Source: a virus (lineage: Duplodnaviria; Heunggongvirae; Uroviricota; Caudoviricetes). Taken from it: a stretch of DNA of 64,000 bases. The stretch covers positions 64,749 to 128,748 of IMG/VR virus record IMGVR_UViG_3300010049_000010. The stretch is one strand, 5' to 3'. Made by a program: the position numbers and the translations under genes. The notes below the pieces were generated by a model. It worked only from the letters and a program-made list of their open reading frames with translations. It was not told the DNA's origin and searched no databases. Positions 24,401-55,735 of this stretch are shown here, piece by piece; within the stretch, counting starts at the first letter, position 1; each line of letters begins with the position of its first letter.

Positions 24401-24409
24401 ATTATTTCC

Positions 24410-25859: not shown

Positions 25860-25881
25860 AGAGTTATATTAACTAATTATT

Positions 25882-26133: not shown

Positions 26134-26136
26134 ACA

Positions 26137-26457: not shown

Positions 26458-26458
26458 A

Positions 26459-27025: not shown

Positions 27026-27074
27026 TAATCACCGTCAAAATGATGATCTAATTCTTTTAAGTTTTGTTCTTTCA

Positions 27075-36243: not shown

Positions 36244-36465
36244 CTAGTTTTCATTTATTTGATCCCATGCTGAATCCCAGCCAACTTGATGTCCATGCTC
36301 GTAACCGTTGTCATTGCCGGATTCCCAAGCGTCTTCTCTTTCTGCTTCAACTAATTCATCAATAAAATCTGTAAGCTCTTCAGCAAGCGCGTCATTCATT
36401 ATGCGATAATTTGCTAAAATAGCTGATAAATTATCTATTATTTCGTCACGTGTTTTAGTTTCCAT
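36244..36465 (-). CDS. small acidic protein
   Basis: ORF only. Confidence 0.35.
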   Translation of the reverse strand: METKTRDEIIDNLSAILANYRIMNDALAEELTDFIDELVEAEREDAWESGNDNGYEHGHQVGWDSAWDQINEN

Positions 36466-36880: not shown

Positions 36881-36896
36881 AATAATATATAAGATA

Positions 36897-39360: not shown

Positions 39361-39493
39361 ATAATCTATATTAACTTTATATTTTATAAATTTTAGTATG
39401 AAATTTCTTTCCTTTTTAAAGATAAATTTAGAAATGCAAGAATTTGCCGACTAAACGGCTTTTTACAATAGATAATTCATTAAACTAATTATT

Positions 39494-42400
39494 ATGTATA
39501 CTTTGCGGGAAAGATATGAACAAATCAAGTTACGAGAAGATACTCACAGTTTGCATGTAGAAGACAGTCTTCTTAAGGGAAAAGATTATATAGAGAGAAT
39601 GCTAGGTTTCTTTAATCATGCTTTAGAGATAGTAGAGGGAAGTGATGATAGTAGTCAACCTAGACCTACAATTAAGTATGATGGAGCGCCTGCAATCGTA
39701 ATGTGGTCACAAAGAGAAGACATCAATGAAAGTTATGGTATTAGCACAAAGTCACTTTTTAACAATAATCCTAAATATTATGGTTCTGACGAGGAAATAG
39801 ACGCCGACAAAGATCGGGCTGATAGTCTTAAAATTAAGATGAAAATGGCTCTTAAATTAGCAGCTGAAAAGATTATTCCAGAGGGTGAGATTTGGCAAGG
39901 CGATTTGCTTTGGACAGCAGGTGATATTAAGAGCATAACTGATGATGGAATAAATTACGTTATTGCAAAACCAAATACTTTAGGATATGCAGCTCCAGCC
40001 GATTCAGATGTCGGTGAGAGAATGAAGAATAGCGATATTGGCATTGTATTTCATACGAGATATAAAGGTCCACTTGATGAGGTTAAACAGTCTAATGATG
40101 TGGATATTTCCGAGTGCAAAAATATACCAGATTGGGCATTTATATTTGACGCGAAGCTTCCCGATTTAAGGGGGAAAGTAACTTTTGATTCTAATGCGTC
40201 TCGTGGACTTAAGAATAGTATTGGAGAATTAAGAAGAAAATGCGCTGATTTAATGGACCACGAAAATTATGATGATTTAGTAAGCAATGAAGATTTTATC
40301 AATTTTTATATGATGACTCTTCAAAACCACAAAATAGACAAAGGTGAAAAAATTGATCCTGAAACTTTTAAGGAAGAACTTCATGATTGGATTAATGTAA
40401 AAATGCACAAAAAATATAATGACTTGAGCAAGTTAAAAACGAAAGCTGGCAGAGATAAAAAGCGAGACACTATTTTATCTACTAGCAGAGAATTACATTA
40501 TATTTGCAGAGAAAATGGAGACTTAATTCACAGTATAGCAGACGCATTATATTGGGCGACTTATATTAAGGGAATTTTGATAGAACAATTTAACAAAGCT
40601 CAAGAATGGATAACCAAGGTTGAAATGAGATCCGGAGGATGGAAGAACACCTCAGGCGAAGGATTCATGATTAGCGATAATGATGGAAAATTTGTTAAGT
40701 TTGTAGACAGATCTGCATTCAGTTATTTTAATAGGTCATCTGAAGTTGTAAAGGGCTTTGAAAGAATAACGGAAAGCGAAGAAAATAAGTGGAATAGGGA
40801 TGAACGCCTTGGCAAAGTTGGTCTTTATGATGATGATGATTGGCATGAAGCAATAGAAGATGATGATGAAGATAAAAATACTGAGGTTGATGAAAATGAA
40901 CAAGTTATTGAAATTGAAACAGAATTATCAGTAGAAGAAATTGAAAATATATGTCTCCGTGTTTTATCTGAAAGTTTAAGAGAAGCTTTTGAGATGGTGG
41001 ATACAGATAGCATTGAAAAAAGATTAAAAGCGATTAAGAGTGATAAATCTGTTACTTGGGTTTGGATAGAAAAAATAAATAAAAAAGCTAAAATTCATTA
41101 CTCAAGAGCAGAAAAAAAACCATCTGGAGGAAATTGGATAGAAGTTAAAAGAAAAGTTGAAATGTCTAATTCATCTAAAAAACCAATTGATAATTCAGAA
41201 AGATTTTTAATTAATAAAAATAATGATCAAAATAAAAATTTATGTTTAATTATAAAAAATATTTTAATTCCGAACATAGAAGACTGGTCTATTTGGAAAA
41301 ATATTGGTTTACAAATAAGTAAATCAGATTCGAGTTCATCTATTTTAGTTAATGTTTGGAAGGACGATGACCCTTTAGGTGGAAATGAAATAGAAGAACT
41401 CTCACTTGGTTTAAAAGGAGTGGATGGTGAAGATTGGTCTTGTAGTGATAATAAAAATAAAAGATTAAGTTTAACTTATAAAAAATTTACAATAAATTTT
41501 AGAAATACAGGTGGAGGAAAAGCAACTGTTATTTATTTTGATAAAAATGGAAACTTAAAATCAATTGAAAAATCATCAAATAAATTTAGTGATTCTGTTA
41601 TTACATCTATACAAGAATCATTAACAGGATTATTTTTAACAATGTCTTTTAATAATGATAAATCAAATTATGCTAAATATGAAAAAATATTATTAACGAT
41701 AGATAATCCTATTTTTGTTAAAAACTTAGTTCAAAAGGATTCAAGCACTTTTAATGTTTCAGGTTTTTCTAATGTTTTAAATTCTTGGAGAGAATCAATA
41801 AAAAATAGTTCTTCTGAAATAATTAAAAGAAAAATTCTAGGTTCATATAAAAAATTATCAAGTGGGCAATGGAAAATAATTCATCCAAGTCTTTATAAAA
41901 CTGACGATTCATATCTTAATTCTATTATTGATTTTAATCCTTATTTAAGTAGACATCTTTTTTCTAATTTTAATTATAAAAATATAATGAGTAGAGATAC
42001 TGCAAATCCTGCAGATATATTTATTATTAATACTGGAACATCATCTTATGATAAATCATTATCTTATGATAGTTTAATTGAAGATTTAAATAATTTAAGA
42101 AAAGATCAATTATATAAAAAAGGTGGAGAATTAAAAAGTTTAACAAGTGTTACCGCATCCACTGAAAATATAAGAGATGCTTTTGTTGCTACACTTAATA
42201 AATATTTTGATGCCGGAATTCTTATTGGAATAAGTTTAAAGAAAACTACTAAAAATGCTAATGTAATTAAATCAGCAACTCATAATTCTTTAAGTGAAAA
42301 TTTAAATAAAGATGATTTATCTTGTTTTGTTTTTAATGATAACAAAAATGATACAATAAAAAGTTTTTCTTTCTCAGGACCACCATATTTAAATAAACAA

Positions 42401-43009
42401 AATAAAAATAATGGAAAAAGTGCTTATTTAATTATAAATGTAGATGGAAATCATCTACATTTAGGAAAAAATATTGCAGAATTAAAAATGGATATTAGAA
42501 TTCCAAGTAGCGGTAATATAAATTCTCCTCCTGTTTCTGAGATAATAATGAATCAATCAGAAGCTAGATTTGGAAAATCTACTGAAGCAGTTAGACTTGT
42601 TTTAAATAATTTTAGAAAAAGATATAAATCAAATATTGCTTCATATATTACAAAATTTTTAAATCAAGAAAATGTTACTTTACGTGAATCTTTAAGATTA
42701 TTTGAAGAAGTTTATAATATATCAAATCGTTTATATGAAGATGAAGATGAAGATGATACTCCAGATAATATTAATTTAAAAGGAAGAATTGATGAAAATA
42801 AAGTGAAAGCTTTAAAAGCAAATTTTTATTTAAAATGTTTAATTCAAGAAATAGGTGGAAGTGTTTCTAATAATAATATAAATTCTTTAATAAAAGAGAA
42901 CTTAACTAAAGTTTTTGCACGTGGCATGAAATATAAGATATATTCATTAAGAACAAAATTATTTGAAAGTTTTAATAATGGTGTAGTAAATTATTTTAAA
43001 ATATTTTAG
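39494..43009 (+). CDS. giant protein (1171 aa): N-terminal RNA/DNA-ligase-like nucleotidyltransferase domain, an acidic linker, and about 600 aa of N/K/S-rich low complexity
   Basis: Motif I TIKYDGAP (KxDG), motif IV GEGFMI and motif V KFVKFVDR. The C-terminal half is compositionally extreme. Confidence 0.45.
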   Translation: MYTLRERYEQIKLREDTHSLHVEDSLLKGKDYIERMLGFFNHALEIVEGSDDSSQPRPTIKYDGAPAIVMWSQREDINESYGISTKSLFNNNPKYYGSDEEIDADKDRADSLKIKMKMALKLAAEKIIPEGEIWQGDLLWTAGDIKSITDDGINYVIAKPNTLGYAAPADSDVGERMKNSDIGIVFHTRYKGPLDEVKQSNDVDISECKNIPDWAFIFDAKLPDLRGKVTFDSNASRGLKNSIGELRRKCADLMDHENYDDLVSNEDFINFYMMTLQNHKIDKGEKIDPETFKEELHDWINVKMHKKYNDLSKLKTKAGRDKKRDTILSTSRELHYICRENGDLIHSIADALYWATYIKGILIEQFNKAQEWITKVEMRSGGWKNTSGEGFMISDNDGKFVKFVDRSAFSYFNRSSEVVKGFERITESEENKWNRDERLGKVGLYDDDDWHEAIEDDDEDKNTEVDENEQVIEIETELSVEEIENICLRVLSESLREAFEMVDTDSIEKRLKAIKSDKSVTWVWIEKINKKAKIHYSRAEKKPSGGNWIEVKRKVEMSNSSKKPIDNSERFLINKNNDQNKNLCLIIKNILIPNIEDWSIWKNIGLQISKSDSSSSILVNVWKDDDPLGGNEIEELSLGLKGVDGEDWSCSDNKNKRLSLTYKKFTINFRNTGGGKATVIYFDKNGNLKSIEKSSNKFSDSVITSIQESLTGLFLTMSFNNDKSNYAKYEKILLTIDNPIFVKNLVQKDSSTFNVSGFSNVLNSWRESIKNSSSEIIKRKILGSYKKLSSGQWKIIHPSLYKTDDSYLNSIIDFNPYLSRHLFSNFNYKNIMSRDTANPADIFIINTGTSSYDKSLSYDSLIEDLNNLRKDQLYKKGGELKSLTSVTASTENIRDAFVATLNKYFDAGILIGISLKKTTKNANVIKSATHNSLSENLNKDDLSCFVFNDNKNDTIKSFSFSGPPYLNKQNKNNGKSAYLIINVDGNHLHLGKNIAELKMDIRIPSSGNINSPPVSEIIMNQSEARFGKSTEAVRLVLNNFRKRYKSNIASYITKFLNQENVTLRESLRLFEEVYNISNRLYEDEDEDDTPDNINLKGRIDENKVKALKANFYLKCLIQEIGGSVSNNNINSLIKENLTKVFARGMKYKIYSLRTKLFESFNNGVVNYFKIF

Positions 43010-43018
43010 GAGATTAAA

Positions 43019-43858
43019 ATGAAAAAGATTAAAGAAATTTTAGCACTAGAATCTCCAATAGTTAACGCTTATAAAAAACAGCTCGACCTAATTAAATCTG
43101 CCGAAAAAAGAAGAAAATTAGAAAACTTACTAAGAACAGCAGCTCATAAAAATATATCTGGTCAAGCAAGCTCAACAGGAAAATATCATCCTAAGTTCGC
43201 TAATTCTGAATTTGGCTTGTCAAAACATACTAAAGCAGTAGTTAGAATTGTTCAAGTTATTTGCACAGTATTTGAAGAATTAGACCCTGATGTTATGATT
43301 ATAGCGGCTATCGCACATGACATGTTTAAATACGGAAGTGAAGACGCAGAACATACTTCTTGGGCTCATGCGAAAGACGCAGGAATGGCTTTACATCAAG
43401 TTGGATTAAAAGATGAAGCTAGACTTGTATATTGTCATATGGGAAACTTTGATAAAAAAGCAGCAGCACCAAAAGAATTAGACGAAAAATTATTACATCT
43501 TGCTGATTATATAGCAAGTCAGAAATTTATTAATATCAATTTTGATAAGGACCATAATTTATTGGAGGAAGATATGAAATCATTTATGCAAATATTTAGA
43601 GAAGCTCATCCATATCATGATAGTAATCGGCCAAGAGATAGTAAAAAACATGTAGGGATGCCTAAGTATATAATTCACAATGATTACTTATTAGAAAAAG
43701 ATGGTAAAGAATATTGTGTAGTAGAATATTTTCCAAGCGCATCATTTAATAAAAAGAAACATCATTATAATCCTACGCCAATTTATTCACATTGGTTAGA
43801 AGATAAAAGACTAATTGCACAAGCAGATAAGGCAGTAAAAGAATATGAAGAGTTTTAA
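43019..43858 (+). CDS. HD-domain phosphohydrolase
   Basis: H … HD motif (IAAIAHDMFKYG); paralog of the ORF at 57229..57810 (shared SSTGKYHP motif). Confidence 0.6.
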   Translation: MKKIKEILALESPIVNAYKKQLDLIKSAEKRRKLENLLRTAAHKNISGQASSTGKYHPKFANSEFGLSKHTKAVVRIVQVICTVFEELDPDVMIIAAIAHDMFKYGSEDAEHTSWAHAKDAGMALHQVGLKDEARLVYCHMGNFDKKAAAPKELDEKLLHLADYIASQKFININFDKDHNLLEEDMKSFMQIFREAHPYHDSNRPRDSKKHVGMPKYIIHNDYLLEKDGKEYCVVEYFPSASFNKKKHHYNPTPIYSHWLEDKRLIAQADKAVKEYEEF

Positions 43859-44717
43859 ACAAATATTACGAGAAGCTATAAATCCCTATGGTTCAGATGA
43901 GGGATATAATGATACTTGCGCAATAGCAATATCTCCTAGAAAAGAAGTTTTTTATCTTTCAGCATACCATCAACATGAAGGACTTTTAGAAAAATATTTT
44001 GATGATTTAGAAGGTGATGAATTATTAAATAAATCTTATGAAACAGGTTGGATAAGAATAAGAGTAAGTCATCATAAAAAGTGTATGATTTTTATAGATA
44101 TTTCTAGATTTAATAAAAAAAATTTAGAAACTCTATGGGACTTCTTTATGGATATGGATGATTTAAATTCTCGATTAACGCATTTTGATTCTGAAGATGG
44201 GGGCCCAAATGAATATAGTCCAAATATAAAAAAATGTGAAAATATTTATATTACTGAAAATTATAATGATAAGATTATTACAATAAAAACAAATTTTAAA
44301 GATATTATAAATTTAAAATTAGAAAATCAAGAATATAGATTAAATAATGTTACTGCAAATATAAAACCACAAGAGTTATTAGATAATTATACCTTTGAAG
44401 AAAGAAAAAAAGAAACTTCAAAATTTAAAATGAAACGTAATTTTATTTATATGTTTGATAAACATAATAATCTTTTAAATAAATGTTTACGTTTTGATGG
44501 TTTTGATTTAAGTTATGGAAGGGGCTCGCGTGATCCATCTAAGTTTACTAAAACATACTTAAATAAAAATCTTTACGAATATTGGTTTGGTGAAGCTTAT
44601 GAAGGCAAAAACGCAGAAAAAGCTGAATATGCAATCTTAAATGATATTAAATTTGAAAATTTAGATGAATTAAGAGATTATTTACAAAATGATTTTGATA
44701 TAAAGGATTTAAATTAA
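43845..44717 (+). CDS. MKSFKQILREA-family protein
   Basis: Shared N-terminal decapeptide. Confidence 0.5.
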   Translation: MKSFKQILREAINPYGSDEGYNDTCAIAISPRKEVFYLSAYHQHEGLLEKYFDDLEGDELLNKSYETGWIRIRVSHHKKCMIFIDISRFNKKNLETLWDFFMDMDDLNSRLTHFDSEDGGPNEYSPNIKKCENIYITENYNDKIITIKTNFKDIINLKLENQEYRLNNVTANIKPQELLDNYTFEERKKETSKFKMKRNFIYMFDKHNNLLNKCLRFDGFDLSYGRGSRDPSKFTKTYLNKNLYEYWFGEAYEGKNAEKAEYAILNDIKFENLDELRDYLQNDFDIKDLN

Positions 44718-45202
44718 TGCGAACATTTAAACAGATATTACAAGAAAGCACTGATGAATGGTTTATGACTAAGAAAAAAGTCTATACAATACAAGGAAGA
44801 ATATCTAATAAAACAGAAAGATATAAAAATAAATTAGAAGGTAATTCTTATGATATGTCTGACCCTCAATATGCAGATGATGAATGGGTAATTTTAAAAG
44901 GTACTGTAGGTGAACTGTGGCCTAATACTTTAGCTAAAACTTGTAGGACATATGGGGTAACTCCAGAAGATTTTGTTGAAGGCGAGTGGATTGACTTAAC
45001 TACACAAAAAGAATACGCATTTACAAATTGGGCCAAAATGAATACTGAACATATTGATTTACCAACAATGCATAATACTATGCATGGAAATCCTGGTAGT
45101 TATCTTGTTTGCACATTAGAAGATAAAGAAAAGAAAAATCCTTGGATAATACATGAAGATGTATTTCCTAACACATATTATACTAGGAATGAAGAAATAT
45201 GA
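44717..45202 (+). CDS. MRTFKQILQE-family protein
   Basis: Shared N-terminal decapeptide. Confidence 0.5.
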   Translation: MRTFKQILQESTDEWFMTKKKVYTIQGRISNKTERYKNKLEGNSYDMSDPQYADDEWVILKGTVGELWPNTLAKTCRTYGVTPEDFVEGEWIDLTTQKEYAFTNWAKMNTEHIDLPTMHNTMHGNPGSYLVCTLEDKEKKNPWIIHEDVFPNTYYTRNEEI

Positions 45203-45828
45203 AATTAACAGAATTACAACATGCTAAAAGAGCAGTTATAAACTTTGGTCGACTAAATCCACCAACAATAGGTCATGTAAAATTAGCTCGAGTTATGGCC
45301 GAAGCAGCAGAAGCATTAGACGCAACACCACTTTTATTTCTTTCTAATTCTTATGATGGAATACAAAGCGGGAAGAGTAAGCCGCCATATAAGAATCCCT
45401 TGCCATTCAGTTCTAAAATCAAATACTGTAAAGATGGCATTGGAGAATATGTGAATATTATTGATTCCAGAGTAATGAACTTATATGACGCATTAGCTGA
45501 AGTTTACAGAGCCGGTTATACTGAATGTTATCTTTTTGGTGGTGATGATAGAGCTGATGATTTTGATAAAGTTAAATCATATAATGGAAGCGAGAAATTA
45601 AGAGACAATCAATTTTTTGATTTTAAGATATTAGAAGTAATAAATGCTGGCAAGCGAGATGAAAATAGTAATAACGTTGAAGAGCAAGCTAGCGCATCAC
45701 TATTACGAAAATGCGTAGTAGATTTAGATTATGAGCGTTTTGAACAATTCGCAGGAACAAAAACTTTAACAGAAGAAATGTTTGAAGAAGTTGCTTTAGA
45801 AATGGGTATTGAATTTGATTGGGAGTAA
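45199..45828 (+). CDS. HxGH/ISSTxIR-superfamily nucleotidyltransferase (NMNAT-like)
   Basis: FGRLNPPTIGH matches the (H/T)xGH motif; SASLLRK matches ISSTxIR. Confidence 0.5.
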   Translation: MKLTELQHAKRAVINFGRLNPPTIGHVKLARVMAEAAEALDATPLLFLSNSYDGIQSGKSKPPYKNPLPFSSKIKYCKDGIGEYVNIIDSRVMNLYDALAEVYRAGYTECYLFGGDDRADDFDKVKSYNGSEKLRDNQFFDFKILEVINAGKRDENSNNVEEQASASLLRKCVVDLDYERFEQFAGTKTLTEEMFEEVALEMGIEFDWE

Positions 45829-45839
45829 AACTAAATAAT

Positions 45840-46448
45840 ATGAAATTATTTGAAAATATTTATAATCAATCATTACAAGAAAATTATAAAAAAACTTGTA
45901 GTAATTGTAATAAAAAATTTATATCAAAGATAGATATTTTTGGGCACACACTTTGTCCAACATGTGAAAAATCGGCCGCGAAATGTAAAGTTTGTGGTGA
46001 AAATATGCATGGTATGAAAGGTTGGCCGGAAGAACGAAAACTTGGAAAATGTTCTAATTGTTGGACTAAACAAGATTTGATTACTATTGGTTGGGAGCAA
46101 GATGAAAAAACTAAACGCGATGCGTTGAAAAATGCTGAAAATACTTTTATTAAATTAGAAATTGATGATGGCGATTTTATAATAAACCCTATGTCTTTCC
46201 CTGGTGGTGATGAATGGACTGAAGTTGATGATGGTGAATTTATTTATGAAGGAACAGTTGCTCAATTTATAGATGATATAACAAGCTACTATGATTACAG
46301 TCGTAACTCAGACAGAGAAGTACAAATATTTACTATATCAAAATCAAAGATTGCTGGATATTGTGTTGCAACACCTATTGGAAAAATATTTTCGTTTCAT
46401 AATAGATATGATGAAACGATTGCTTGTAAAGTTATAGAAAGGAGATAA
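45840..46448 (+). CDS. Cys-rich zinc-binding protein
   Basis: CSNC…CPTC…CKVC…CSNC. The start was moved to the ATG abutted by aactaaataat. Confidence 0.45.
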   Translation: MKLFENIYNQSLQENYKKTCSNCNKKFISKIDIFGHTLCPTCEKSAAKCKVCGENMHGMKGWPEERKLGKCSNCWTKQDLITIGWEQDEKTKRDALKNAENTFIKLEIDDGDFIINPMSFPGGDEWTEVDDGEFIYEGTVAQFIDDITSYYDYSRNSDREVQIFTISKSKIAGYCVATPIGKIFSFHNRYDETIACKVIERR

Positions 46449-46450
46449 TA

Positions 46451-46843
46451 ATGAAAACTTTTGCAGAAATATATGGAAAACCATTAAGAGAAATGAAAGG
46501 GAGAATTGAAAGAAAAGAATTTGAAGATGGAACAGTTTCAACAGATTATTCTCCTGAATGGGAAGAAAGCGATGTGTCTGAATATATAGCTGATCTTCAA
46601 AAAGCTTTACCTATGATTGACCCTGAAAAAGTTGCTTCTGTAGCAATGAATAGTTATGACGACCACTGGGGATTCGGTGTTGAAGACGTTGAAAGAGATT
46701 TTGTAGACATTCTTGAAGAAATGGGTATTGAATACCAAGGCGATAATGCTGGTGATGTTTATGAAGATCTAAATAATGTTACGTCTAAATGGTGGAATAA
46801 AGGTGAAGACGTTGAATATGACGACGAAGAGTATGAAGATTAA
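46451..46843 (+). CDS. acidic hypothetical protein
   Basis: ORF only. Confidence 0.4.
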   Translation: MKTFAEIYGKPLREMKGRIERKEFEDGTVSTDYSPEWEESDVSEYIADLQKALPMIDPEKVASVAMNSYDDHWGFGVEDVERDFVDILEEMGIEYQGDNAGDVYEDLNNVTSKWWNKGEDVEYDDEEYED

Positions 46844-47334
46844 TCAATAAAATGGAAATAATATTTAGGGGTTCCTTCAAAGGGAACCTCTACTCGTATT
46901 TGAACATAGTTTAGTTCGTCATCAATATCAACTTCACATTCATAAGTGTCATATCGTTTAACATCCGGTTTCTTTTCAGGTTTATAATTCTTTTCGGAAT
47001 GTTCAAATTCCATATCTTTTAAAATATCATCCAACGAAATTACAGTAGATAATACGTCATGCATATAATCAGCGTCGTTATTTCGAGAGCTGAATACTTT
47101 AGCAGCTCCTTTAGTTTCTCCTCTTAATGCGGCGGAAATTGACCAAAAAAATTCTCTAAATCCTTTTTCAGTTATCATTATATTTCGTCCGTCTTTTGTT
47201 TGAACTTTCTTTCCAAGATGATTTCGTTTAAAATAATTTTCAGCAAATTTATAAGTTTCTCGGAATGATGGATTATATAATTTTTTATCAATTGGCTCAG
47301 CATTTACGCGCTCATAGATTTGTTGGAACGTCAT
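46840..47334 (-). CDS. hypothetical protein
   Basis: tactaattatt-ATG box. Confidence 0.45.
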   Translation of the reverse strand: MTFQQIYERVNAEPIDKKLYNPSFRETYKFAENYFKRNHLGKKVQTKDGRNIMITEKGFREFFWSISAALRGETKGAAKVFSSRNNDADYMHDVLSTVISLDDILKDMEFEHSEKNYKPEKKPDVKRYDTYECEVDIDDELNYVQIRVEVPFEGTPKYYFHFID

Positions 47335-47355
47335 AATAATTAGTAACTAAATAAT
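47335..47355. promoter_or_regulatory. bidirectional pair of A/T boxes (tactaattatt-ATG on the minus strand; aactaaataat-ATG on the plus strand)
   Basis: The two box variants sit back-to-back between divergent starts at 47334 (-) and 47356 (+; a 20-aa ORF, MKLFEQ…). Confidence 0.4.
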
Positions 47356-47427
47356 ATGAAGTTATTTGAACAAATCTCTTGTGAGTGGGATCGAGCTGTA
47401 GAAGAGGATGAAAGTTAATTTACAAAT

Positions 47428-47814
47428 ATGGCAGGACGTAGAAGTTCAGACGACCCAAAATGGGCAGAAACTAAAAAGATAGTCGATAAACGAGATCGAC
47501 GTCAATGCCAGTTTGAGAAATGTTTATCTCTCAAAGAATCATATCAATTAAAAATAGACGGCCCAACTGTATTAGACCGCGCACATATTTTCGCAGCATC
47601 AGCAAGACCAGATCAAATATATAATCCAAAAAATGTAATTACGCTCAGAAGATTTATTCACCAGAGAATGGATGGATATAAAAATCCAATTACGGGTGAC
47701 CCAATAGATTATAATGAAACTATGTTTTGGTGGCATAGAATATTAAAAAAATTTGTTGATGATTATGAGCCAGATGTTGATTATGAGGAACTTCTAAAAG
47801 CCGAGATTAGATAA
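47428..47814 (+). CDS. possible HNH-family endonuclease
   Basis: CQFEKC … RAHIFAAS … NVITLRRFIHQ gives an H-N-H spacing. Weak call. Confidence 0.35.
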   Translation: MAGRRSSDDPKWAETKKIVDKRDRRQCQFEKCLSLKESYQLKIDGPTVLDRAHIFAASARPDQIYNPKNVITLRRFIHQRMDGYKNPITGDPIDYNETMFWWHRILKKFVDDYEPDVDYEELLKAEIR

Positions 47815-47830
47815 ATTTTACTAATTATTT

Positions 47831-50800
47831 ATGGCAGATGGAATTTCAATCGGTAGTGCTGAAACGAGTCAACAACTTAATAGTTTAAATGACGCAATAG
47901 CAGGAACAACGTCTGCATTAGGCGCTGACGGAGCGCTTGCAAATAAAATGGAAGGTATTACTGAAAAACTTAATTCTGTTATTCAAACAGAAGTCACTAA
48001 TCTTCCAACAGAAATACAAAAAGTTTTAGAAGCTCTGTCTGTAAGCACATCTAATTTAGATTCACTTAAAAAACACTTTGAAGATGAAGCTAAAGAAGCA
48101 AATGCTAAGAAACAAAAATTAGCTGATGCAGCTAAAACTGGAAAAAAAGATTTTAAAGACAATGACGTCGCGAAATTGCCAGCTGAAATGTCTGCTGGAT
48201 CACTATTTCTCGGCGGCCAACTTAAATTATTATTAGGTGAAAAATCACTTATATTTGCTGGAATTGCTGATATTGCTAGAACAAGTGATTTAATTTATAA
48301 ACACATAACAGGCGAAGGCAGTAAAAAGAAAGACGATAAAAAAGGAAAAGGCAAAGATGGAAAAGGAGCTGAAACTCCTGGTCTTAAACATAAGGGTGGA
48401 GGATGGGAAGATTTATCTAAAACTTTAATGTCTTTCGCTAAAGCAGCACTTGTAATAAGCATAATGACTCCTGTTTTTTTAATTGGATTGGTAGCTCTTA
48501 AAGTTGCAGGAAAATTTATGGACTCCGCAGCGAAATTATTTCTATATGAGAAAGATGGAAAGACTGCAAAAAATTGGAAAAAAGAACAGAATAAGTTAAA
48601 AGAAGCTTTAAAGTTTACTACTATGCTTCTGGGATTATTTAAAAATTTAATATATGTCGCATTATTTTGTGTGGGAATGTTATTTATAGTTCTTCCAGCT
48701 ATAATAGGCGTATTTGCTGCAATGTTATTTTTACTTGTAATTAAACTTTTTGCTAATGTAGCGACTAAAATGAAATTAGACAAAAAAGTAGTAATAAATA
48801 TAATGTGGGCTAGATTTTTATTCCAACAATTAGTGCTTACTATGTTATTTGCATCGCTTATAATTATATTTATTCTCCCAGCTATATTAGGTATATTTGC
48901 AGCTATTATATTTATGTTGGCATTTAAGTTATTATCTTTGATAGCAGGCAAATTATTAGGTGGAGTATTTAAGTTCTTAATTGTTGTAGTTTTAATGGCA
49001 ATTGCAATGTTGTTTTTCGCAATAACATTATTTATAATGACTAAAGTTGTTACACTTAAGTCAATACTAATCGCTATTGTTTCATTAGTCGCAATTACTT
49101 TATTATTAGCTATTGTAGCTCTTATAGGTTTCGGCGCGACATATGTGCTTCCATTTATTGCAGCATTTGCGTTAGCTTGTATATTTATGGCATTGGGATT
49201 CATTTTATTCGTATTAGCTCTTAAAATACTCAGTTTAGTTACAATAGATTTAATATTAGAATCAGCTGAAAAGATGCTGTTTATTGGTAAGTTTTTCTTG
49301 ATGTTCGCATTATGTATTCCAGTTTTCTTAATTGGTATGTATGCGGCGATTTATTTAATGATCGCATCAGTTGCATTATTTATTGGTATGCTATTTTTAT
49401 TCTTAGCTCTTTTCTTTTTGAAATTAGTTATTGGATCAATAGAGCAATTACTTAAAATGCCAATATCATTTATTCCAGAAGGCGCGCCCGAATGGATGGG
49501 TGGATTAGGCGCAATAGCTATGATTGCGATATTTTTCTTAGGATTATTTTTATTACTACCTGTTTTAATTCTTGCAGTTGTGCCTGCTGTATTATTGGCG
49601 GTAACTTCAATATTATTACTTGTTGGATTTTTAGCATTATCTGGTGCAGTTGCAATGGCTGGAATTGTAGCAAATATTTTTAATGATAATGAAAATATAA
49701 AAAGTGTTGGATTAATAATGAGTTTATTTTTCTTATGCTTGATTCCTGCTGGATTAGCTGCTTTAATTTTACTTCCATTCGCAGTTATTTTCTTAGCTGC
49801 AGCTGTAATATTACTTGTAGCATTTACCGCATTAACGGGAGTAATAGCATTAGCAAAAGTTTTAGCAAAAGGTTTTAGCGCAGATGGGGAATTAGGAACA
49901 AAAGACAAACGAAAAGAAGTTGGTGACGCAATTGCAAGTGTTTTTGGTATGATTGCTAATAAAGATCTTATAAAAGCTGCCCTAAAAGTATTATTTGTCG
50001 GCGCGCCCGTTTTAGCAGCTTCTCTTATGATGTTGGCAATATTTTCTTCAATTGTTGGTTGTTACAGGGGAATAAAAGAAATACAAGAAATACAAGAAAG
50101 TTTAAATCCTGTGGCTGTTGGATTCGTTTTTAAGGCAGTTGAAGATCTTGCAAAAGTAGTTGAGCGAGCTGCTGATATAACAAAAGATGTGGCTTTAAGA
50201 GGTTTAGGAAAATTTAGACTAGGCATTGGCGGAGTTATAGAAGCTATAAATGGTATTGTTGACGTTATTATTAAACTTGCTAATTTTGAGAAAGACGCAA
50301 GTGCATATGGTTATGAAGGTGGTGGTGCGGCTTTAATAAGAGAAGCTTGTAGTCAACTTCAATTTATTATTAGAGAATTTTTTGGTCTTAATGCTGATGG
50401 AACTAAAGATGATTCTAATCCTTTTTCTATTATGAATGTTTTTGGAGCAATCGGGAAAATAAAAGGCGGAGATTTAAAAACAGTAAATGCGTTAGCTCCA
50501 CTTGCTGAAGGTTTGGGCGCTATTGTTGATCTTGTTATAAAAGTAAGAGATGTTAATGATGTTGGAAAAGCTAAAGAAAATATGATAGAAATATTTGAGT
50601 TTACGCAATCATTAAGTAGACTAACAGGAGTTTTAACTTCAGGAGCTCTTAAAAAGGGTGACACTCCTAGAATTTTAAAACGTGTAAATGAAGATATTAT
50701 GCCTCATATTCCAACTTTCTTAGATAAACTTCAAGAAATTTCTGAGAAAGCTAGGGGAATTGATTTAGTTGAATTACAACTTCAAGAATGTTTAGTAACA

Positions 50801-51103
50801 CCATTAGTAGATTTAGGCACTAAAAATATAGGTAGAGAAATAGATAAAATATCTCAATCAATTGGAAAACTTAATAGAGAATTAAGTAAAATGACGAGAG
50901 AAAATGGAAACGTAATTGGTTCATTAGGAAACATTGGGGCAGCGGCTATATTATCTTTAAAAGGAGATAGCGGTGGTGGATCTAGAGGTCCTGACCAAAA
51001 TACTAATTTATTAAGAATGATTGAACAACACTTAAGATTAATTTGTGATGCGACTGAAGAAAATAATAAGACAGAAAATGACCATACAAGTTTTACAGCG
51101 TAG
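47831..51103 (+). CDS. tape-measure-like giant protein: N-terminal coiled-coil and about 20 TM helices
   Basis: 1090 aa with a repeated ILPAILGIFAA hydrophobic module; it sits upstream of the M23 peptidase gene. Confidence 0.45.
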   Translation: MADGISIGSAETSQQLNSLNDAIAGTTSALGADGALANKMEGITEKLNSVIQTEVTNLPTEIQKVLEALSVSTSNLDSLKKHFEDEAKEANAKKQKLADAAKTGKKDFKDNDVAKLPAEMSAGSLFLGGQLKLLLGEKSLIFAGIADIARTSDLIYKHITGEGSKKKDDKKGKGKDGKGAETPGLKHKGGGWEDLSKTLMSFAKAALVISIMTPVFLIGLVALKVAGKFMDSAAKLFLYEKDGKTAKNWKKEQNKLKEALKFTTMLLGLFKNLIYVALFCVGMLFIVLPAIIGVFAAMLFLLVIKLFANVATKMKLDKKVVINIMWARFLFQQLVLTMLFASLIIIFILPAILGIFAAIIFMLAFKLLSLIAGKLLGGVFKFLIVVVLMAIAMLFFAITLFIMTKVVTLKSILIAIVSLVAITLLLAIVALIGFGATYVLPFIAAFALACIFMALGFILFVLALKILSLVTIDLILESAEKMLFIGKFFLMFALCIPVFLIGMYAAIYLMIASVALFIGMLFLFLALFFLKLVIGSIEQLLKMPISFIPEGAPEWMGGLGAIAMIAIFFLGLFLLLPVLILAVVPAVLLAVTSILLLVGFLALSGAVAMAGIVANIFNDNENIKSVGLIMSLFFLCLIPAGLAALILLPFAVIFLAAAVILLVAFTALTGVIALAKVLAKGFSADGELGTKDKRKEVGDAIASVFGMIANKDLIKAALKVLFVGAPVLAASLMMLAIFSSIVGCYRGIKEIQEIQESLNPVAVGFVFKAVEDLAKVVERAADITKDVALRGLGKFRLGIGGVIEAINGIVDVIIKLANFEKDASAYGYEGGGAALIREACSQLQFIIREFFGLNADGTKDDSNPFSIMNVFGAIGKIKGGDLKTVNALAPLAEGLGAIVDLVIKVRDVNDVGKAKENMIEIFEFTQSLSRLTGVLTSGALKKGDTPRILKRVNEDIMPHIPTFLDKLQEISEKARGIDLVELQLQECLVTPLVDLGTKNIGREIDKISQSIGKLNRELSKMTRENGNVIGSLGNIGAAAILSLKGDSGGGSRGPDQNTNLLRMIEQHLRLICDATEENNKTENDHTSFTA

Positions 51104-51111
51104 GAGTTTAA

Positions 51112-51717
51112 ATGAGTGATAAAAAATTAGATGCTTCAAAATTTCCTTGGTTGCAAAGTGATGGAAAAAAGGGAGCTGAAAAACCGCCTATGGATAATGT
51201 TAGTAAACTTGAAGAAATCGGACAAACGAAATATGTTGTCCCAAATGGGCTTATAACTTTTGGTTGGAAAGCAAGAAGTTATCCAGATCATAAAGGTATT
51301 GATATTATTCCCAAAAGAACTGGGTCCGCACCTACGGGAACCCCTATTTATTCTTTATTAGCTGGGTTTGTCGTTACAAGTGTTGATATATTTCCAAATA
51401 ATCAAAGTATTTATAATGATAATCCTAAAGATATGAGTAAAGCATTTGGAAATTATGTTGTTGTTTTAAGTAGTGGTGGTATATATGCTTATTATTGTCA
51501 CTTATATTCAGTAGAAGTAGAAAAATATACTAGAATAAAACGAGGTGAACTAATTGGAACTATGGGTGATACTGGAAATAGCGCCGGCGATCATCTTCAT
51601 TTTGAATTAAGACGTAGGAGTATGTCGCCAGCAAGCGCATTTGATCCGACTCCTTATTTTGGTTATGAAGTATGTAATAATCCACCACAAAGAAGAACTG
51701 GTAGACAGTCAAGATAG
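51112..51717 (+). CDS. M23-family metallopeptidase (lysostaphin-like; virion-associated or endolysin)
   Basis: HKGIDI (HxxxD) and GDTGNSAGDHLHFELR (HxH). Confidence 0.75.
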   Translation: MSDKKLDASKFPWLQSDGKKGAEKPPMDNVSKLEEIGQTKYVVPNGLITFGWKARSYPDHKGIDIIPKRTGSAPTGTPIYSLLAGFVVTSVDIFPNNQSIYNDNPKDMSKAFGNYVVVLSSGGIYAYYCHLYSVEVEKYTRIKRGELIGTMGDTGNSAGDHLHFELRRRSMSPASAFDPTPYFGYEVCNNPPQRRTGRQSR

Positions 51718-51726
51718 GAGTAAAAT

Positions 51727-52950
51727 ATGGCAATAGTAAAAATGGAAGAAAGTAAATTAAGAACCAGACAAGGAAATAATGTGGCCATGATAAATACATC
51801 TCCAACTCCCGATGGATTAACTAATTTAGTAACCCAAGATAGCACAATTGAAAATTTTTCAACTGTTCCCGCAAATTTAGATGATAATACAGGGGTGCAT
51901 TTTTATCCTCATATAAATAAATTTAAAGTTGTTGAACTTGCTGTTAGTTCTTTGCATGTACAATATCCATTACAAATAACGAGTCCTCAATGGGGAAATT
52001 GGCGGAATAGTCACCCTGACCAAAAAGATTGGGCTGGTGGAACAACTAATGTAGATGATAGAATTTTATTATTTCCAACTAATAAAACATTTGCATTTAA
52101 TTATTCTCATGAATATGGTAATGCTTGGGAAAAATTATCAAGTACTGGTATGTTAAGTAAAGTTCAACAGGGTCTTGAAGCAATGAGAAGTTTAGCTATG
52201 ATGGCAGGCGCATCAGGTGTTAGTACTGGTGGAAAAATGATTTCTCGCTATACCAATACTCCAGTTTGGAATAAATCTACTCCAGTTAAATACACTTCAA
52301 ATTTAGAATTTGAATTTCATTTTGGTCAAGCGGGTATTTACTCAGGAGAGGAAGAAGTTGTGAAACCTATACTTAGATTAATTCATTTATTTTCTCCATT
52401 ATTAGTGGGTAATTATGCAAGAGGTCCTGTTCCAACGGCGCCAACTTATTTGGCCGCCATGCTTTCTTTAATAGGAGATAAAGATAGGGCCCAAATGGGA
52501 GACTTAGATACAGCAAAAAATGATGCCTCAAAAATAAGCACTGATGCCCCAGTGGATGATAAAGGCAACGCCGTTGCAGAATCAGATAAAGATAGAAACA
52601 AAAGACTTTCAGGAATGGCTACTGCTATGGGTGGTATTGTTAATAAGTTAACTCAGTTAGAAGAAATGCTTATGAAAAAAATGGATGATTCTATTGGTAG
52701 AGCATTAAATGGATGGCGTGCTAGCGATGGTTGGCAAGGTGGATCTAGAGGTCTTTGTATTAGAATGGGAAGAATGTCATTAGGACCTTATGTAGTAAAA
52801 GAAGTTAATTGGGATTTTGATTTTACTCAAACAGATGAGTTTGGTTTTCCATATAAAGGTAAAATTACATTTGGTGGATTAGAATCTATCTTTGTTGCTA
52901 ACCCAAGTCAAATACAACATCATTTTGGTGGAAATAATACTAGAAGTTAA
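51727..52950 (+). CDS. hypothetical structural (tail/baseplate?) protein
   Basis: Its position after the tape-measure-like and M23 genes; GGAG Shine-Dalgarno site. Confidence 0.4.
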   Translation: MAIVKMEESKLRTRQGNNVAMINTSPTPDGLTNLVTQDSTIENFSTVPANLDDNTGVHFYPHINKFKVVELAVSSLHVQYPLQITSPQWGNWRNSHPDQKDWAGGTTNVDDRILLFPTNKTFAFNYSHEYGNAWEKLSSTGMLSKVQQGLEAMRSLAMMAGASGVSTGGKMISRYTNTPVWNKSTPVKYTSNLEFEFHFGQAGIYSGEEEVVKPILRLIHLFSPLLVGNYARGPVPTAPTYLAAMLSLIGDKDRAQMGDLDTAKNDASKISTDAPVDDKGNAVAESDKDRNKRLSGMATAMGGIVNKLTQLEEMLMKKMDDSIGRALNGWRASDGWQGGSRGLCIRMGRMSLGPYVVKEVNWDFDFTQTDEFGFPYKGKITFGGLESIFVANPSQIQHHFGGNNTRS

Positions 52951-53951
52951 ATCAATTTTATTATATCTCTCATTCTTTGTTGATAATCATTTCCTCTAAT
53001 TAGAGTCAACCGGTAACACATATTTAATTGCATTCTATATTGTTCAATGAGATAAGTTTCGTCCTCTTTTCTGGTAGACTCTAGAAATCTATATCCATCG
53101 TTAACCCAATCAACCTCAGAAGAAAGAATGAATATCTGATCATAATCTTGTAATTTAATTATTTCTTTAATGAGATTTGAATCAGCGCCTTTATGATATT
53201 TTTCTAAATAATATCTAGTGACTACTGCATCACTGTCAACAAATAAATATTTATTAGAATGCTCTAAAGCATCTTGTTGAGCAATCCAATGTTTCATAGC
53301 GATATTATCAAACTGTTTGACTGTTAATTGATTAGCATGTTTCTCACAATAATCTCTGCCAATTTCGTGCACATAATTAGTGTTAAAATATTTAGCCAGA
53401 TTTCTTGCCATTGTAGATTTACCTACGCTTTCAACTCCAGTAAATAAAATCTTTTTAGTAAAATGAGGTCTTGTTATTGGCAAAATATATTCCCAATACT
53501 TAAATGGGTCTTGTCGTATTTCAGTAGCAGATATATTTACGAAACTTCTGTCTCGATCTAATATAACGTGTTTCGCGTTTGGATAATTAACTTTAAAGAA
53601 TTGGTCATAAGCTGGTTCAGAACTAAACACGTGAGTCAGCCCCGGAATCATTTTACGAACTTGAGCCGTGCCTTTAGTCCAATCATATTCCATCTCATCA
53701 TATTCTATTTCAAGTAAGTCAACTTCCTTGCCCAATTTTCTCAATTCAGATATAGAATGTCCAATCCAAGATTTTCGTAATTCAGGAGACATTTCTTTAA
53801 TACCTTCTTTTTCACAAAGTTGTTTGTCAAATTCTTTATTATGAAATAAAATTATGTAGAGCTTATCAACATGAGTGAGCGCTTCCATTGCTGCATAATG
53901 GTGACCACTGTGAAATGGAAGAAATTTTCCGCCATATTGTCCAATTTTCAT
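52947..53951 (-). CDS. nadR: NadR-like bifunctional NMN adenylyltransferase / ribosylnicotinamide kinase
   Basis: GGKFLPFHSGHH matches HxGH and ISATEIRQ matches ISSTxIR. The C-terminal P-loop is GVESVGKST. Confidence 0.75.
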   Translation of the reverse strand: MKIGQYGGKFLPFHSGHHYAAMEALTHVDKLYIILFHNKEFDKQLCEKEGIKEMSPELRKSWIGHSISELRKLGKEVDLLEIEYDEMEYDWTKGTAQVRKMIPGLTHVFSSEPAYDQFFKVNYPNAKHVILDRDRSFVNISATEIRQDPFKYWEYILPITRPHFTKKILFTGVESVGKSTMARNLAKYFNTNYVHEIGRDYCEKHANQLTVKQFDNIAMKHWIAQQDALEHSNKYLFVDSDAVVTRYYLEKYHKGADSNLIKEIIKLQDYDQIFILSSEVDWVNDGYRFLESTRKEDETYLIEQYRMQLNMCYRLTLIRGNDYQQRMRDIIKLI

Positions 53952-53952
53952 T

Positions 53953-54162
53953 TTATTCTCCTGTAAAATATTGTTTTTTATTCCATTTTCTTCTGGATTC
54001 TATATCTTCTAAAAATTTATCTGGATTTATATCTAATTCTTCAGCGATTGCTTCAACTAGATAATTTGTTCTTTCTGGATAGTGATAAATATAAGTATTT
54101 ATGTTTTGAGTTAGTTCTTCTAGTTTAACAGGTTGAACTATTTTGCCTTTGAGTCGTTCCAC
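53953..54162 (-). CDS. hypothetical small protein
   Basis: ORF only. Confidence 0.35.
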   Translation of the reverse strand: MERLKGKIVQPVKLEELTQNINTYIYHYPERTNYLVEAIAEELDINPDKFLEDIESRRKWNKKQYFTGE

Positions 54163-54481
54163 AAGATCCTCCTATATTTCTAGTACTGCAAGTGCTTCTG
54201 TTGGCGCTTCCCCCGCCGCCTCCACCCATGTATGGCATTTTAGGTGGGACATTTGGATTAGGCGCGCCACAACTTCCAACATCATCGTCATAATCAAATT
54301 CATCTTCTATTTTTTGCATTGATAATCTATTTTTCTTTTGCTTTATTAGTTTATCGAGGTCATGTTGTGCTATTGTTTCTATTAATTTTTCTCTTAACTC
54401 AGGATATTTCTCAGATAACTCTTTGGCTTGTTGAGCTATTTGAGACATTGTTTTGACGTAATTTTTATTAGTTTCTAACAC
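54125..54481 (-). CDS. small protein with a Gly/Ser/Thr/Cys-rich C-terminus
   Basis: …GGGGGGSANRSTCSTRNIGGSCGTTQRQNSSTC-COOH. Confidence 0.45.
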   Translation of the reverse strand: MLETNKNYVKTMSQIAQQAKELSEKYPELREKLIETIAQHDLDKLIKQKKNRLSMQKIEDEFDYDDDVGSCGAPNPNVPPKMPYMGGGGGGSANRSTCSTRNIGGSCGTTQRQNSSTC

Positions 54482-54490
54482 ATAATTAGA

Positions 54491-54817
54491 TTAACAGCTT
54501 CTAGAAAATCCCGCACCACAAGAAGATGATGAATATGTATATCCTTTTCGTTCCATTTCTTTTGATGATACTCTAGTATTAGGTCCTTCTTTAATTAAAT
54601 TATATAATTCGCGCGCCTTTGCTAATACACTTTTAGCGTATGGGGTTCGCGCATTATCTAATTGTACAATAAACTCATACACATCTGATCTAAAATCATC
54701 TATTTTTTGTTTTGAGCTTCTTTGTCTGCTACTTCCGCCACATTCTCTTAAATGTTGTTGGCCTTCAACTAATTTATTTGAGGCTTGATACACACTTTCG
54801 AATAATTTACTAATCAT
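54491..54817 (-). CDS. small protein with a Ser/Cys-rich C-terminus
   Basis: …YTYSSSSCGAGFSRSC-COOH. Confidence 0.45.
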   Translation of the reverse strand: MISKLFESVYQASNKLVEGQQHLRECGGSSRQRSSKQKIDDFRSDVYEFIVQLDNARTPYAKSVLAKARELYNLIKEGPNTRVSSKEMERKGYTYSSSSCGAGFSRSC

Positions 54818-54826
54818 TTTAACTCC

Positions 54827-55735
54827 TTACCAGGAATTAGTGACAAGCCCGTCATTATAAATTACTTTGTAATTTTTGCGGCCTTTTAAGTAGTCCCTCA
54901 CATTCCTAATAATTAGTTTAAGTTTTTCAGAATTCGTCATAGTGTAGTTCACATCATCGACCATCGCACAGCCCCGTTTAACTAGGATCTTAATTCCTTT
55001 GAACATCTTTTTGGATAAGTCTTTTGGCCATTTATTTCCTTTGAGAAAAGTACTGCATCCTGATGATATTGGTGGACCTAGTTTAAGATCAGGCCAAATA
55101 TCTTTTATTCCAACGTGTAAATCGGGTTTGTGCGTTAATTCGTTTATCTTGATATATTTTACACCCCAGTGAGCAAGTTCCATTAATTCCATTTTAACTT
55201 GATGTTCAAATTCTATATGTTTTTTAACAAGACAAAAAGACACTCGAAACTTATCAGCATAACCGTCTTTAATAAGTTCTCTAACGAATTGCTGTCTCCA
55301 AGTATTTGGCTTACTCATTCCCATTATATCCATAGCAGTATTTGGATAAGCTGAACCAATAGATATATTGCATCCATCTAAACGGTTTAATAATTCTTTG
55401 AATCTAAATTTCTGTAATTCGTGATTTAAGTTTGGTGGTAGAGCTGTAAACATTGTTATTTCTTTAACGTAAGGTCTAATGAAATCTACTAACATTTTTA
55501 CTTTGTCAGGATAGAGCATTGGCTCTCCACCTTCAATTACGACAGATTGCCAACCAGTTTTAATGATATTATCTGCTATTTTTTCAACATCAATATTTTC
55601 TTTACATCCTTTCTTTGTTTTTTTAGCTAAACAATGAATGCATGCGTATGGACATTTTCTAGTTAAAGCTATATTTATGTATGGTGCACTTCCATCGCAA
55701 TTATTTCTAAAAGTAATATTATCCTCCGAATATAG
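54827..55735 (-). CDS. radical SAM enzyme whose CX3CX2C motif lies upstream of the first canonical start codon
   Basis: In the same frame, upstream of the track start (MLYPD at 55519), I read …TRKCPYACIHCLAKK…VVIEGGEP. The frame is open back to 55735 with no ATG, GTG or TTG. GGAGGA lies upstream of an in-frame ATT. Confidence 0.55.
   Translation of the reverse strand, partial: LYSEDNITFRNNCDGSAPYINIALTRKCPYACIHCLAKKTKKGCKENIDVEKIADNIIKTGWQSVVIEGGEPMLYPDKVKMLVDFIRPYVKEITMFTALPPNLNHELQKFRFKELLNRLDGCNISIGSAYPNTAMDIMGMSKPNTWRQQFVRELIKDGYADKFRVSFCLVKKHIEFEHQVKMELMELAHWGVKYIKINELTHKPDLHVGIKDIWPDLKLGPPISSGCSTFLKGNKWPKDLSKKMFKGIKILVKRGCAMVDDVNYTMTNSEKLKLIIRNVRDYLKGRKNYKVIYNDGLVTNSW

Follow-up and report, generated by a model that had tools for sequence, protein, structure and literature searches.

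A radical SAM gene and its small neighbours

The window analysed here is a stretch of 64,000 nucleotides (nt) of a Caudoviricetes virus (positions 64,749 to 128,748 of IMG/VR record IMGVR_UViG_3300010049_000010). It carries a gene block in which two small proteins with a C-terminal cysteine are encoded directly after a radical S-adenosylmethionine (rSAM) enzyme. Comparison with related loci indicates that these small proteins are real partners of the enzyme. All features of the block are on the minus strand of the window, as are the RNA ligase and its two companions upstream of pnuC, and they follow each other in the order pnuC, rSAM, 54491..54817, 54125..54481, 53953..54162 and a nadR-like gene. 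The pnuC-like gene (55719..56381; Pfam NMN_transporter, E=3.4e-16; PHROG 1880), for a transporter of nicotinamide riboside or nicotinamide mononucleotide (NMN), lies directly upstream of the rSAM gene, which by its translation occupies 54827..55717, i.e., 296 codons and a stop.

Peptide 1 (54491..54817), of 108 amino acids (aa), has an AAGGAG and an ATG that starts 9 nt past the rSAM stop. Past its N-terminal helix (MISKLFESVYQ..) lie a RECGGSS motif and a middle part that is helical and charged, and the protein closes with SSSSCGAGFSRSC-COOH. Peptide 2 (54125..54481) has 118 aa from GTG 54481 or 107 aa from ATG 54448, the start used in the public call; an acidic stretch is followed by DVGSCGAP..., a Gly run and the end ...GGSCGTTQRQNSSTC-COOH. 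The two proteins thus finish in ...RSC and ...STC, with terminal pairs C-x7-C and C-x11-C, and the helical, charged character with a Cys/Ser/Gly-rich tail that the initial annotation had noticed right after the rSAM gene is indeed present in both. A third small open reading frame (ORF; 53953..54162, 69 aa, GTG start) has no Cys. The block closes with the nadR-like gene (52947..53951; PHROG 3462, E=1.2e-80; Pfam AAA_28 and CTP_transf_like), predicted to encode an NMN adenylyltransferase / ribosylnicotinamide kinase.

The beginning of the rSAM gene is unusual. Its frame is preceded by a TAA at 55738..55736 and stays open from 55735 as far as its own stop (54829..54827), sharing the last 17 nt of pnuC, whose TAA is at 55721..55719. 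The first in-frame ATG, GTG or TTG is found at 55519, as a Met right after the GGEP motif. Both this motif and the CPYACIHC motif are upstream of that ATG, so that a product started there would be without them, i.e., a catalytically dead fragment. The 72 stop-free codons ahead of the ATG have a probability of about 0.003 at the composition of the window, and all the family-invariant N-terminal residues fall inside them. The open frame, the position of its first canonical start downstream of CPYACIHC and the overlap of about 17 nt with pnuC had all been described in the initial annotation and agree with our reading. Among the explanations offered there, an ATT start is the best candidate, and a sequencing frameshift is unneeded since the frame is continuous and homologues carry their own ATG.

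This ATT (55717..55715) lies 1 nt past the pnuC TAA and 4 nt after a Shine-Dalgarno-like GGAGGA (55727..55722) placed within the end of pnuC. Six full-length homologues of 290-307 aa open with M(I/L)TF-x-NNCDG, and in the alignment Met1 of the closest pair, P0002 and P0003 (MTFSNNCD...), falls precisely on the ATT; a single base differs, ATT ACT TTT in the window against ATG ACT TTT in the related loci L002 and L007. In relatives, the rSAM ATG shares bases with the stop of pnuC (ATGA or TAATG), directly adjoins it or lies 11 nt after it, and the ATT of the window therefore keeps the same stop/start coupling arrangement. A programmed frameshift or a pnuC-rSAM fusion was rejected on the same ground, each homologue having an ATG of its own at these positions. 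The 5-nt spacing between GGAGG and the start is the commonest among the 11 pairs of GGAGG and canonical start in the window, occurring also at the GTG of 53953..54162, and the strong GGAGGA is missing from the ATG-bearing homologues. Taken with the alignment, this makes the ATT very probably the initiator of the rSAM gene. It would also be the reason why public calls shorten the protein to 230 aa (P0001, 54827..55519, without Pfam annotation). This truncated product is on record in two contigs and three sources, which argues against a one-off assembly error. Locus L006 is the same contig as the window and hence gives no independent DNA for the ATT, and an exact-pattern scan of IMG/VR for an independent copy of the region gave no match.

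AUU starts are weak in E. coli, the classical cases being infC and pcnB. As in those genes, the ATT of the window stands behind a good Shine-Dalgarno sequence, and low, possibly IF3-sensitive translation is to be expected. Unlike them, it is a lineage-specific swap for an ATG kept in all sequenced relatives, and no autoregulatory logic is evident at the rSAM gene. A low output from the ATT would suit an enzyme that is scarcer than its peptide partners, with their AAGGAG and ATG.

A compact enzyme and its cysteine tail across the family

Residues 24-120 of the long frame are covered by matches to Pfam Radical_SAM (E=1.2e-7) and Fer4_12, and no SPASM domain is matched in Pfam, in line with what the initial annotation had suspected. 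Residue numbers here count the initiator as 1; the alignment tool, run on a query without the initiator, numbers them one lower. The protein has the features that define the radical SAM superfamily: a partial TIM-barrel core with CX3CX2C close to its N-terminus (CPYACIHC, 55631..55654; C22, C26 and C29, ligands of the SAM-binding [4Fe-4S] cluster) and a SAM-binding motif of the GGEP type. Residues N5, C7, C22, C26, C29 and G63-G64-E65-P66 are invariant both in 15 and in 60 diverse members, as are N117, S119, R158, E193, G220-C221, C250 and W296, with which the window protein ends (...TNSW). We propose to define a new family by its N5 and C7, by G220-C221 and C250 in the C-terminal third, by W296 close to the end of the core, and by a Cys that is the last residue of a flexible C-terminus or no more than about 2 residues from it, either fused or on a peptide encoded at the rSAM stop. 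Three of the invariant cysteines are outside CX3CX2C: C7 in an N-x-C-(D)-G motif (codon 55697..55699), C221 in a G-C motif (55055..55057) and C250 in a (K/R)-R-x-C motif (54968..54970). By their conservation, these three are candidate ligands of a putative second [4Fe-4S] cluster with one open iron.

An AlphaFold2 model of the enzyme (mean predicted local distance difference test score, pLDDT, of 92) has as structural neighbours rSAM enzymes throughout, and it suggests no specific membership. The scores are GDGT-MAS 17.9, MoaA 17.6 (TM 0.63), SuiB 16.5, CteB 16.2, PFL-AE 16.1, viperin 16.0 and anSME 15.4. NCBIfam matches are likewise all far under their cut-offs, the top one being prokaryotic viperin with 38.9 bits vs 180. 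No curated family of Pfam, PHROG or NCBIfam reached its cut-off for the rSAM protein or the small peptides.

In most relatives a Cys tail belongs to the enzyme itself. Among 94 clusters at 90% identity that could be anchored, the rSAM protein of 84 does not stop at the conserved W but goes on as a tail containing 1-6 Cys. In 65 of these 84 tails the last Cys is penultimate; it follows Gly or Ser in 78 and precedes His in 44 or Tyr in 33. The commonest contexts are GCH (70), SCY (32), DCH (20) and SCH (15), and typical ends are GCH-COOH, SCY-COOH and GGC-x-Y-COOH. One Cys is present in 37 tails and three in 21. At 50% identity, about 60 representatives are fused vs 35 untailed. In an AlphaFold2 model of a fused member the tail is disordered (pLDDT <50). 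With most relatives carrying the tail in cis, the window peptides with their terminal Cys can be read as the trans version of the same tail. Such a fused and split occurrence amounts to Rosetta-stone evidence for a direct physical and functional interaction.

The split arrangement is itself recurrent. Lineages were defined as clusters at 70% identity (n=32) and tallied by reading their ORF tables: 22 are split, with a gene for a Cys-motif peptide at or just past the rSAM stop, 5 are fused and 5 are unclear or peptide-less. An automated criterion, a Cys-tail ORF beginning at most 45 nt from the rSAM stop, counts 19 split and 5 fused lineages out of 32, and a tail of this kind occurs in 5.6% of background ORFs. 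The binomial probability of at least 17 of the 27 unfused lineages having it is about 1e-10 to 1e-6, depending on assumptions. The decisive evidence for the partnership is from far relatives, whose rSAM identity is 23-33% and whose gene neighbourhoods have nothing else in common: there too, the peptide ORF overlaps or closely follows the rSAM stop. In the Lak-B5 megaphage (23% rSAM identity), for instance, a 166-aa protein located 19 nt past the rSAM gene ends in SSGGCGNTYGSPYHHWSGGC-COOH. Since the pairing is kept between lineages of only 23-30% rSAM identity, the small proteins are probably tied functionally to the enzyme. A gene other than rSAM common across the lineages was not found.

The peptides of split lineages begin with an amphipathic helix and carry Cys motifs at the C-terminus or close to it, as in MKMKITKLARKLFESMGHCGQSGGHCK (L022), MLTRIVRWIIRASGCHGACHGTRR (L048), MKKNKLITRIARFIAGIRGCRPTGGCHS (L013) and ...HDNCHHSNGCHH (L099); others carry four copies of GHCG (L008) or four of CHG (L050). 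One to three separate peptide genes are found per locus. Some partners have the helix and the Cys motif internal or doubled (L010 / L040, 4895..5554; L023, 1872..2147), so the motif is not always C-terminal; the 219-aa protein of L010 has two copies of h-x-x-IY-x5-L-x-E-x-C-(G)n-C. In two members of one human-gut phage lineage (L015, 3986..4984; L053, 3001..3984) the rSAM C-terminus is frameshifted (...EDGSLIINRFNINK) and a 28-aa CH peptide ORF is lost; it looks as if both parts decayed together.

Within the clade of the window, the gene order pnuC, rSAM, two or three small genes and nadR is kept. Peptide 1 has counterparts in L002, L005, L001 and L144, with an LFExIY start and a terminal Cys in common, and peptide 2 in L002 (6501..6737, ..DEDVGGCSIGQVAQKC) and L005 (7084..7323, ..DDYGCSGSGMGKPSSSC). 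An alignment of eight small proteins of the clade is hypervariable: Met1 and the terminal Cys are the only invariant positions, and the consensus C-terminus is G-C-G-x-G-x3-S-x-S-C-COOH. The Pfam scan of the small neighbours gave no significant match, PqqD-like or other. The third small ORF is confined to this clade (L001, 7143..7289; L002, 6704..7159) and has a conserved PER-x-(E/N)YL...IAE motif; in the window its GTG lies 4 nt past a second GGAGGA, and it overlaps by 38 nt the coding end of the peptide 2 Cys tail.

Possible roles of the tail

The initial annotation compared the arrangement to precursors of peptides that are made on the ribosome and modified after translation (RiPPs) next to their maturase. 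The link between the small proteins and the rSAM enzyme is upheld by the conserved pairing, but the classical picture of leader and core is incomplete: in most family members the tail is the C-terminus of the enzyme itself, and either a substrate in cis, as in borosins, or a catalytic or cofactor arm is therefore possible. The system would work most like a sactipeptide or ranthipeptide synthase with a Cys-rich precursor, in a borosin-like layout.

The data show how the genes are arranged, where the start codon falls by homology, that pairing and fusion are conserved and which residues do not vary. Beyond this, we put forward the following working model. The locus would be the split form of a two-part system of phages and other mobile elements, made of a compact rSAM enzyme of about 290 aa and a flexible Cys-ended tail. 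The enzyme would be translated from the ATT, coupled to the end of pnuC via the strong GGAGGA, probably giving little enzyme relative to its partners. The tail would be supplied in trans by the two small proteins, each of which starts in an amphipathic helix for docking, continues with a charged, variable middle and has a Gly/Ser-rich C-x7-13-C-COOH end. C7, C221 and C250 would hold the auxiliary [4Fe-4S] cluster, and the thiolate of the terminal Cys of the peptide would bind its open iron. The CX3CX2C cluster would then generate a 5'-deoxyadenosyl radical that takes a hydrogen atom from the peptide, and a Cys-centred modification would follow; fused members would modify their own tail, as borosins do. 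In the thioether synthase CteB, a 3-Cys auxiliary cluster binds the substrate Cys through its open iron, and CteB matches the modelled fold of the window enzyme well.

That the enzyme carries out a Cys-centred modification of the peptide end, with the tail as its substrate, is the reading we favour, though we regard it as an even call; the auxiliary cluster, the substrate status and the chemistry in it are all putative. The tail as substrate is favoured by the variable number (1-6) of repeated C-H units per tail, by the several different peptide genes per locus with their hypervariable linkers, and by a leader-like helix that is present only when the tail is detached. As for the chemistry, a thioether-type crosslink of the sactipeptide/ranthipeptide kind is the leading guess by analogy, and a weak one. 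Several observations count against this reading. Five lineages have no obvious peptide. The auxiliary cluster is deduced from conservation. A crosslink between cysteines was rejected as the general chemistry, the tail having a single Cys in 37 of 84 fused members. A 1:1 fusion of enzyme and substrate would be unusual. No protease, exporter/transporter or immunity gene was found beside the pair at the loci examined, and no RRE (RiPP recognition element) or SPASM domain in the core, these being the domains of all characterised thioether synthases. Finally, ATT being weak as a start in E. coli, the window gene, known from one sequence, may be recently inactivated.

Alternatively, the tail or peptide could be a working part of the enzyme, either a removable fourth ligand or gate, or a sacrificial donor of sulfur or a hydrogen atom, the real substrate being a small molecule, possibly related to NAD or nucleotides. 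There are precedents: the C-terminal Ser of LipA (RSSY motif), the Gly-Gly tail of MoaA, which is able to act in trans as a peptide, and the sacrificial cysteines of LarE and THI4. This explanation accounts well for the sufficiency of one Cys in those 37 tails, for its tightly conserved distance to the C-terminus and for the three invariant core cysteines, which is as many as an auxiliary cluster that leaves one site open should have. The nucleotide-utilising MoaA and viperin are among the best sequence and fold matches, the rSAM gene is within NAD-salvage gene sets in at least three distant lineages, and export or protease machinery is absent nearby. However, a ligand or gate would have no need of up to 6 repeated C-H units, 2-3 different peptide genes per locus and long hypervariable linkers; in most lineages NAD genes are lacking within 3-7 kb, and a candidate small-molecule substrate cannot be named. 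We consider this the main alternative, if a rather unlikely one.

It is also conceivable, at a clearly lower level of likelihood, that the tail is a consumable cartridge in which each [G/S]-C-[H/Y] unit is used once, e.g., as a sacrificial sulfur or radical donor. The enzyme would use up these units to make or destroy a small molecule, possibly NAD- or nucleotide-linked, that helps phages and conjugative elements against host immunity. How many turnovers are possible would then depend on how often the unit is repeated, and the window, with its split peptides, would have cartridges that can be reloaded.

Another possibility is that the tail works as a dithiol/disulfide redox arm feeding reducing equivalents to the active site, in the manner of class Ia ribonucleotide reductase, whose C-terminal CxxxxC tail is re-reduced by thioredoxin. 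Cys pairs 3-7 mostly Gly/Ser residues apart near a flexible C-terminus suggest such a role, as do the C-x7-C and C-x11-C ends of the window peptides. Pairs are, however, not the rule among the fused tails (37 of 84 have a single Cys and 21 have three), the conserved His or Tyr after the Cys is left unexplained, and separate peptides with docking helices would be odd for a redox arm. We regard this possibility as very doubtful, and hold an equally low opinion of the idea that the window rSAM is a recent pseudogene (ATG to ATT) with the small ORFs as leftovers. A loss of function would fit the lack of a canonical start ahead of the catalytic motifs, the 230-aa fragment that is all public gene callers give, and the decayed related loci L015 and L053. 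Yet the frame is intact over 296 codons with every invariant residue retained, the strong GGAGGA stands at the locally preferred spacing and is absent from ATG-bearing homologues, the stop/start coupling with pnuC is kept, and both peptides with their terminal Cys are intact. Least credible of all is that the Cys/His tails are metal-binding sites (heme c-type CXnCH or Ni/Zn/Fe chaperone tails) linked to the rSAM enzyme by metal supply only: many fused tails are C-H-x2-8-C-H, formally CXnCH, and Cys/His-rich C-termini are known in metallochaperones, but the window-clade and Lak tails have no His beside the Cys, for which the heme c reading was rejected, type-A tails end in SCY, the strict penultimate Cys position stays unexplained, and heme c attachment requires export and dedicated machinery, for which no search aimed at these proteins was made.

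Returning to the Cys-centred modification that we favour, the closest characterised counterparts are the ranthipeptide and sactipeptide systems (the SCIFF precursor CteA with CteB/Tte1186; SkfB). These have SPASM/twitch and RRE domains, a SPASM domain comprising 7-8 Cys and two auxiliary clusters, whereas the window enzyme has neither: its family has only three extra Cys, one of them N-terminal, which leaves two invariant Cys C-terminal to the core; all NCBIfam models of SPASM maturases score 15-23 bits vs cut-offs of 250-650. PqqE and anSME also belong to the SPASM/twitch maturases. The cluster motif begins at residue 22 of 296 and so leaves no room for an N-terminal RRE domain, and no PqqD-like RRE is present in the rSAM protein or as a small neighbour. 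Furthermore, the tail is often fused to the enzyme, and the family is carried by phages and mobile elements rather than by Clostridia chromosomes. The NCBIfam models for SCIFF and ranthipeptide precursors, which have a conserved leader and a core of six Cys, matched neither of the window peptides nor the GHCG peptide of L008. In borosins (omphalotin OphMA; bacterial split borosins) the enzyme likewise comes with its own C-terminal core or with a separate precursor, but these enzymes are SAM-dependent N-methyltransferases and not rSAM enzymes, and the likeness is one of architecture only, with no relation in sequence or fold.

Mycofactocin offers a further parallel, since there too an rSAM enzyme (MftC) acts at the extreme C-terminus of a small peptide (MftA, ...CGVY-COOH), and many family tails end in C-Y, C-x-Y or C-H. 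The window peptides differ in ending in Cys, not Tyr, and MftC has a SPASM domain and requires the RRE protein MftB; the window enzyme scores 20 bits vs 265 with TIGR03962. The GTP 3',8-cyclase MoaA is no closer: its NCBIfam models score 28-30 bits vs cut-offs of 231-325 (TIGR02666, 27.8 vs 284), PF06463 (Mob_synth_C) is not matched, its auxiliary motif CX2CX13C places the Cys triad differently, and its tail is Gly-Gly instead of Cys-His/Tyr. Viperins have a conserved nucleotide-binding extension at the C-terminus, but the prokaryotic viperin profile (NF038283) matches only the core, about residues 18-195, and the Foldseek TM-scores of the model to viperins are about 0.5. Glycyl-radical enzyme activases (PflA/NrdG) are equally remote (TIGR02493, 18 bits vs 232; TIGR02495, 24 vs 131), and the window peptides contain no RVxG[FWY] glycyl-radical motif.

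Carriers and genomic surroundings

About 110 clusters at 90% identity came out of a profile search, with no meaningful name among them, and a search without word index among 1.84 billion proteins gave 216 representatives at 50% identity (E<=1e-30). With one genome per species (185,579 species), a single full-length member was recovered, on a 3.2-kb contig of a metagenome-assembled genome. Other members are on large viral contigs, including Lak megaphages, and in early regions of temperate phages. The family is not strictly viral: one fused-tail member (P0057; L146-L148) is present on at least 24 contigs, where its neighbours are YodL, DUF4314, an SLH protein and a surface protein of giant size, which is a Firmicutes mobile-element setting and not a phage. 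A literature search on radical SAM, RiPP or ranthipeptide in phages, viruses or megaphages found no description of the system. The pairing of an rSAM enzyme with a Cys peptide is a known kind of system, and there is a real chance that its chemistry or biological role here is new.

If the pairing is functional, it would define an undescribed rSAM family almost absent from the genomes of bacterial species, its carriers being phages, both huge and temperate, and mobile elements of Firmicutes. The logic of the family would be new, combining a minimal enzyme free of SPASM and RRE domains with a C-terminal Cys motif that was repeatedly fused and split in evolution. It would offer a compact system for the rSAM recognition of peptide termini, and possibly a novel way of modifying peptides or a novel cofactor derived from a protein. 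Phage counter-defence is a candidate function in view of the early and NAD-salvage genes among which it lies. The ATT-started gene is also a reminder for annotation: public calls truncate it, its catalytic N-terminus is missing from protein databases, and similar cases may hide there.

The NAD-salvage gene sets around the rSAM gene vary. In the window (52947..56381), pnuC and nadR flank the rSAM block, and L005 has a phosphoribosyl pyrophosphate synthetase besides. L149 (7680..11453) has NMN adenylyltransferase-like, NadE, nicotinate phosphoribosyltransferase and PncA-like genes around the rSAM gene, and in L150 (5196..9983) and L059 (1703..5765) the order is nicotinate phosphoribosyltransferase, rSAM and glutamine-dependent NadE; a NADAR gene is near P0084. 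Most other lineages are without NAD-salvage neighbours. This context is compatible with a nucleotide- or NAD-linked function, and it may also reflect a clustering of counter-defence or auxiliary genes rather than a common chemistry.

In the region 52800..57400 of the window no intrinsic-terminator-like sites were found on either strand, which is consistent with a single long transcript across the block, and promoter-like sites there were in no excess over shuffled expectation. Upstream of pnuC (57229..60628), an RNA ligase (59891..60628), a polynucleotide-kinase-like AAA_33 protein (59358..59891) and an HD-domain protein (57229..57810) together look like an RNA-repair module. L001, L002 and L005 have the same trio ahead of the rSAM block, and there is an RNA ligase near P0084. 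On the other side of the block, 47831..51103 (+) encodes a protein of 1090 aa that has no PHROG match and whose middle is very long, hydrophobic and multi-transmembrane; it is followed by an M23 peptidase (51112..51717) and by a weak match to PmgG-like head morphogenesis (51727..52950). The whole window (1..64000) gave no tRNA genes. Near-identical phage genomes were not found either, the relatives among cultured phages being only Lak and uncultured records without annotation. The G+C content of the window is 31.7%, and its source contig of 328 kb corresponds to a genome of jumbo-phage size.

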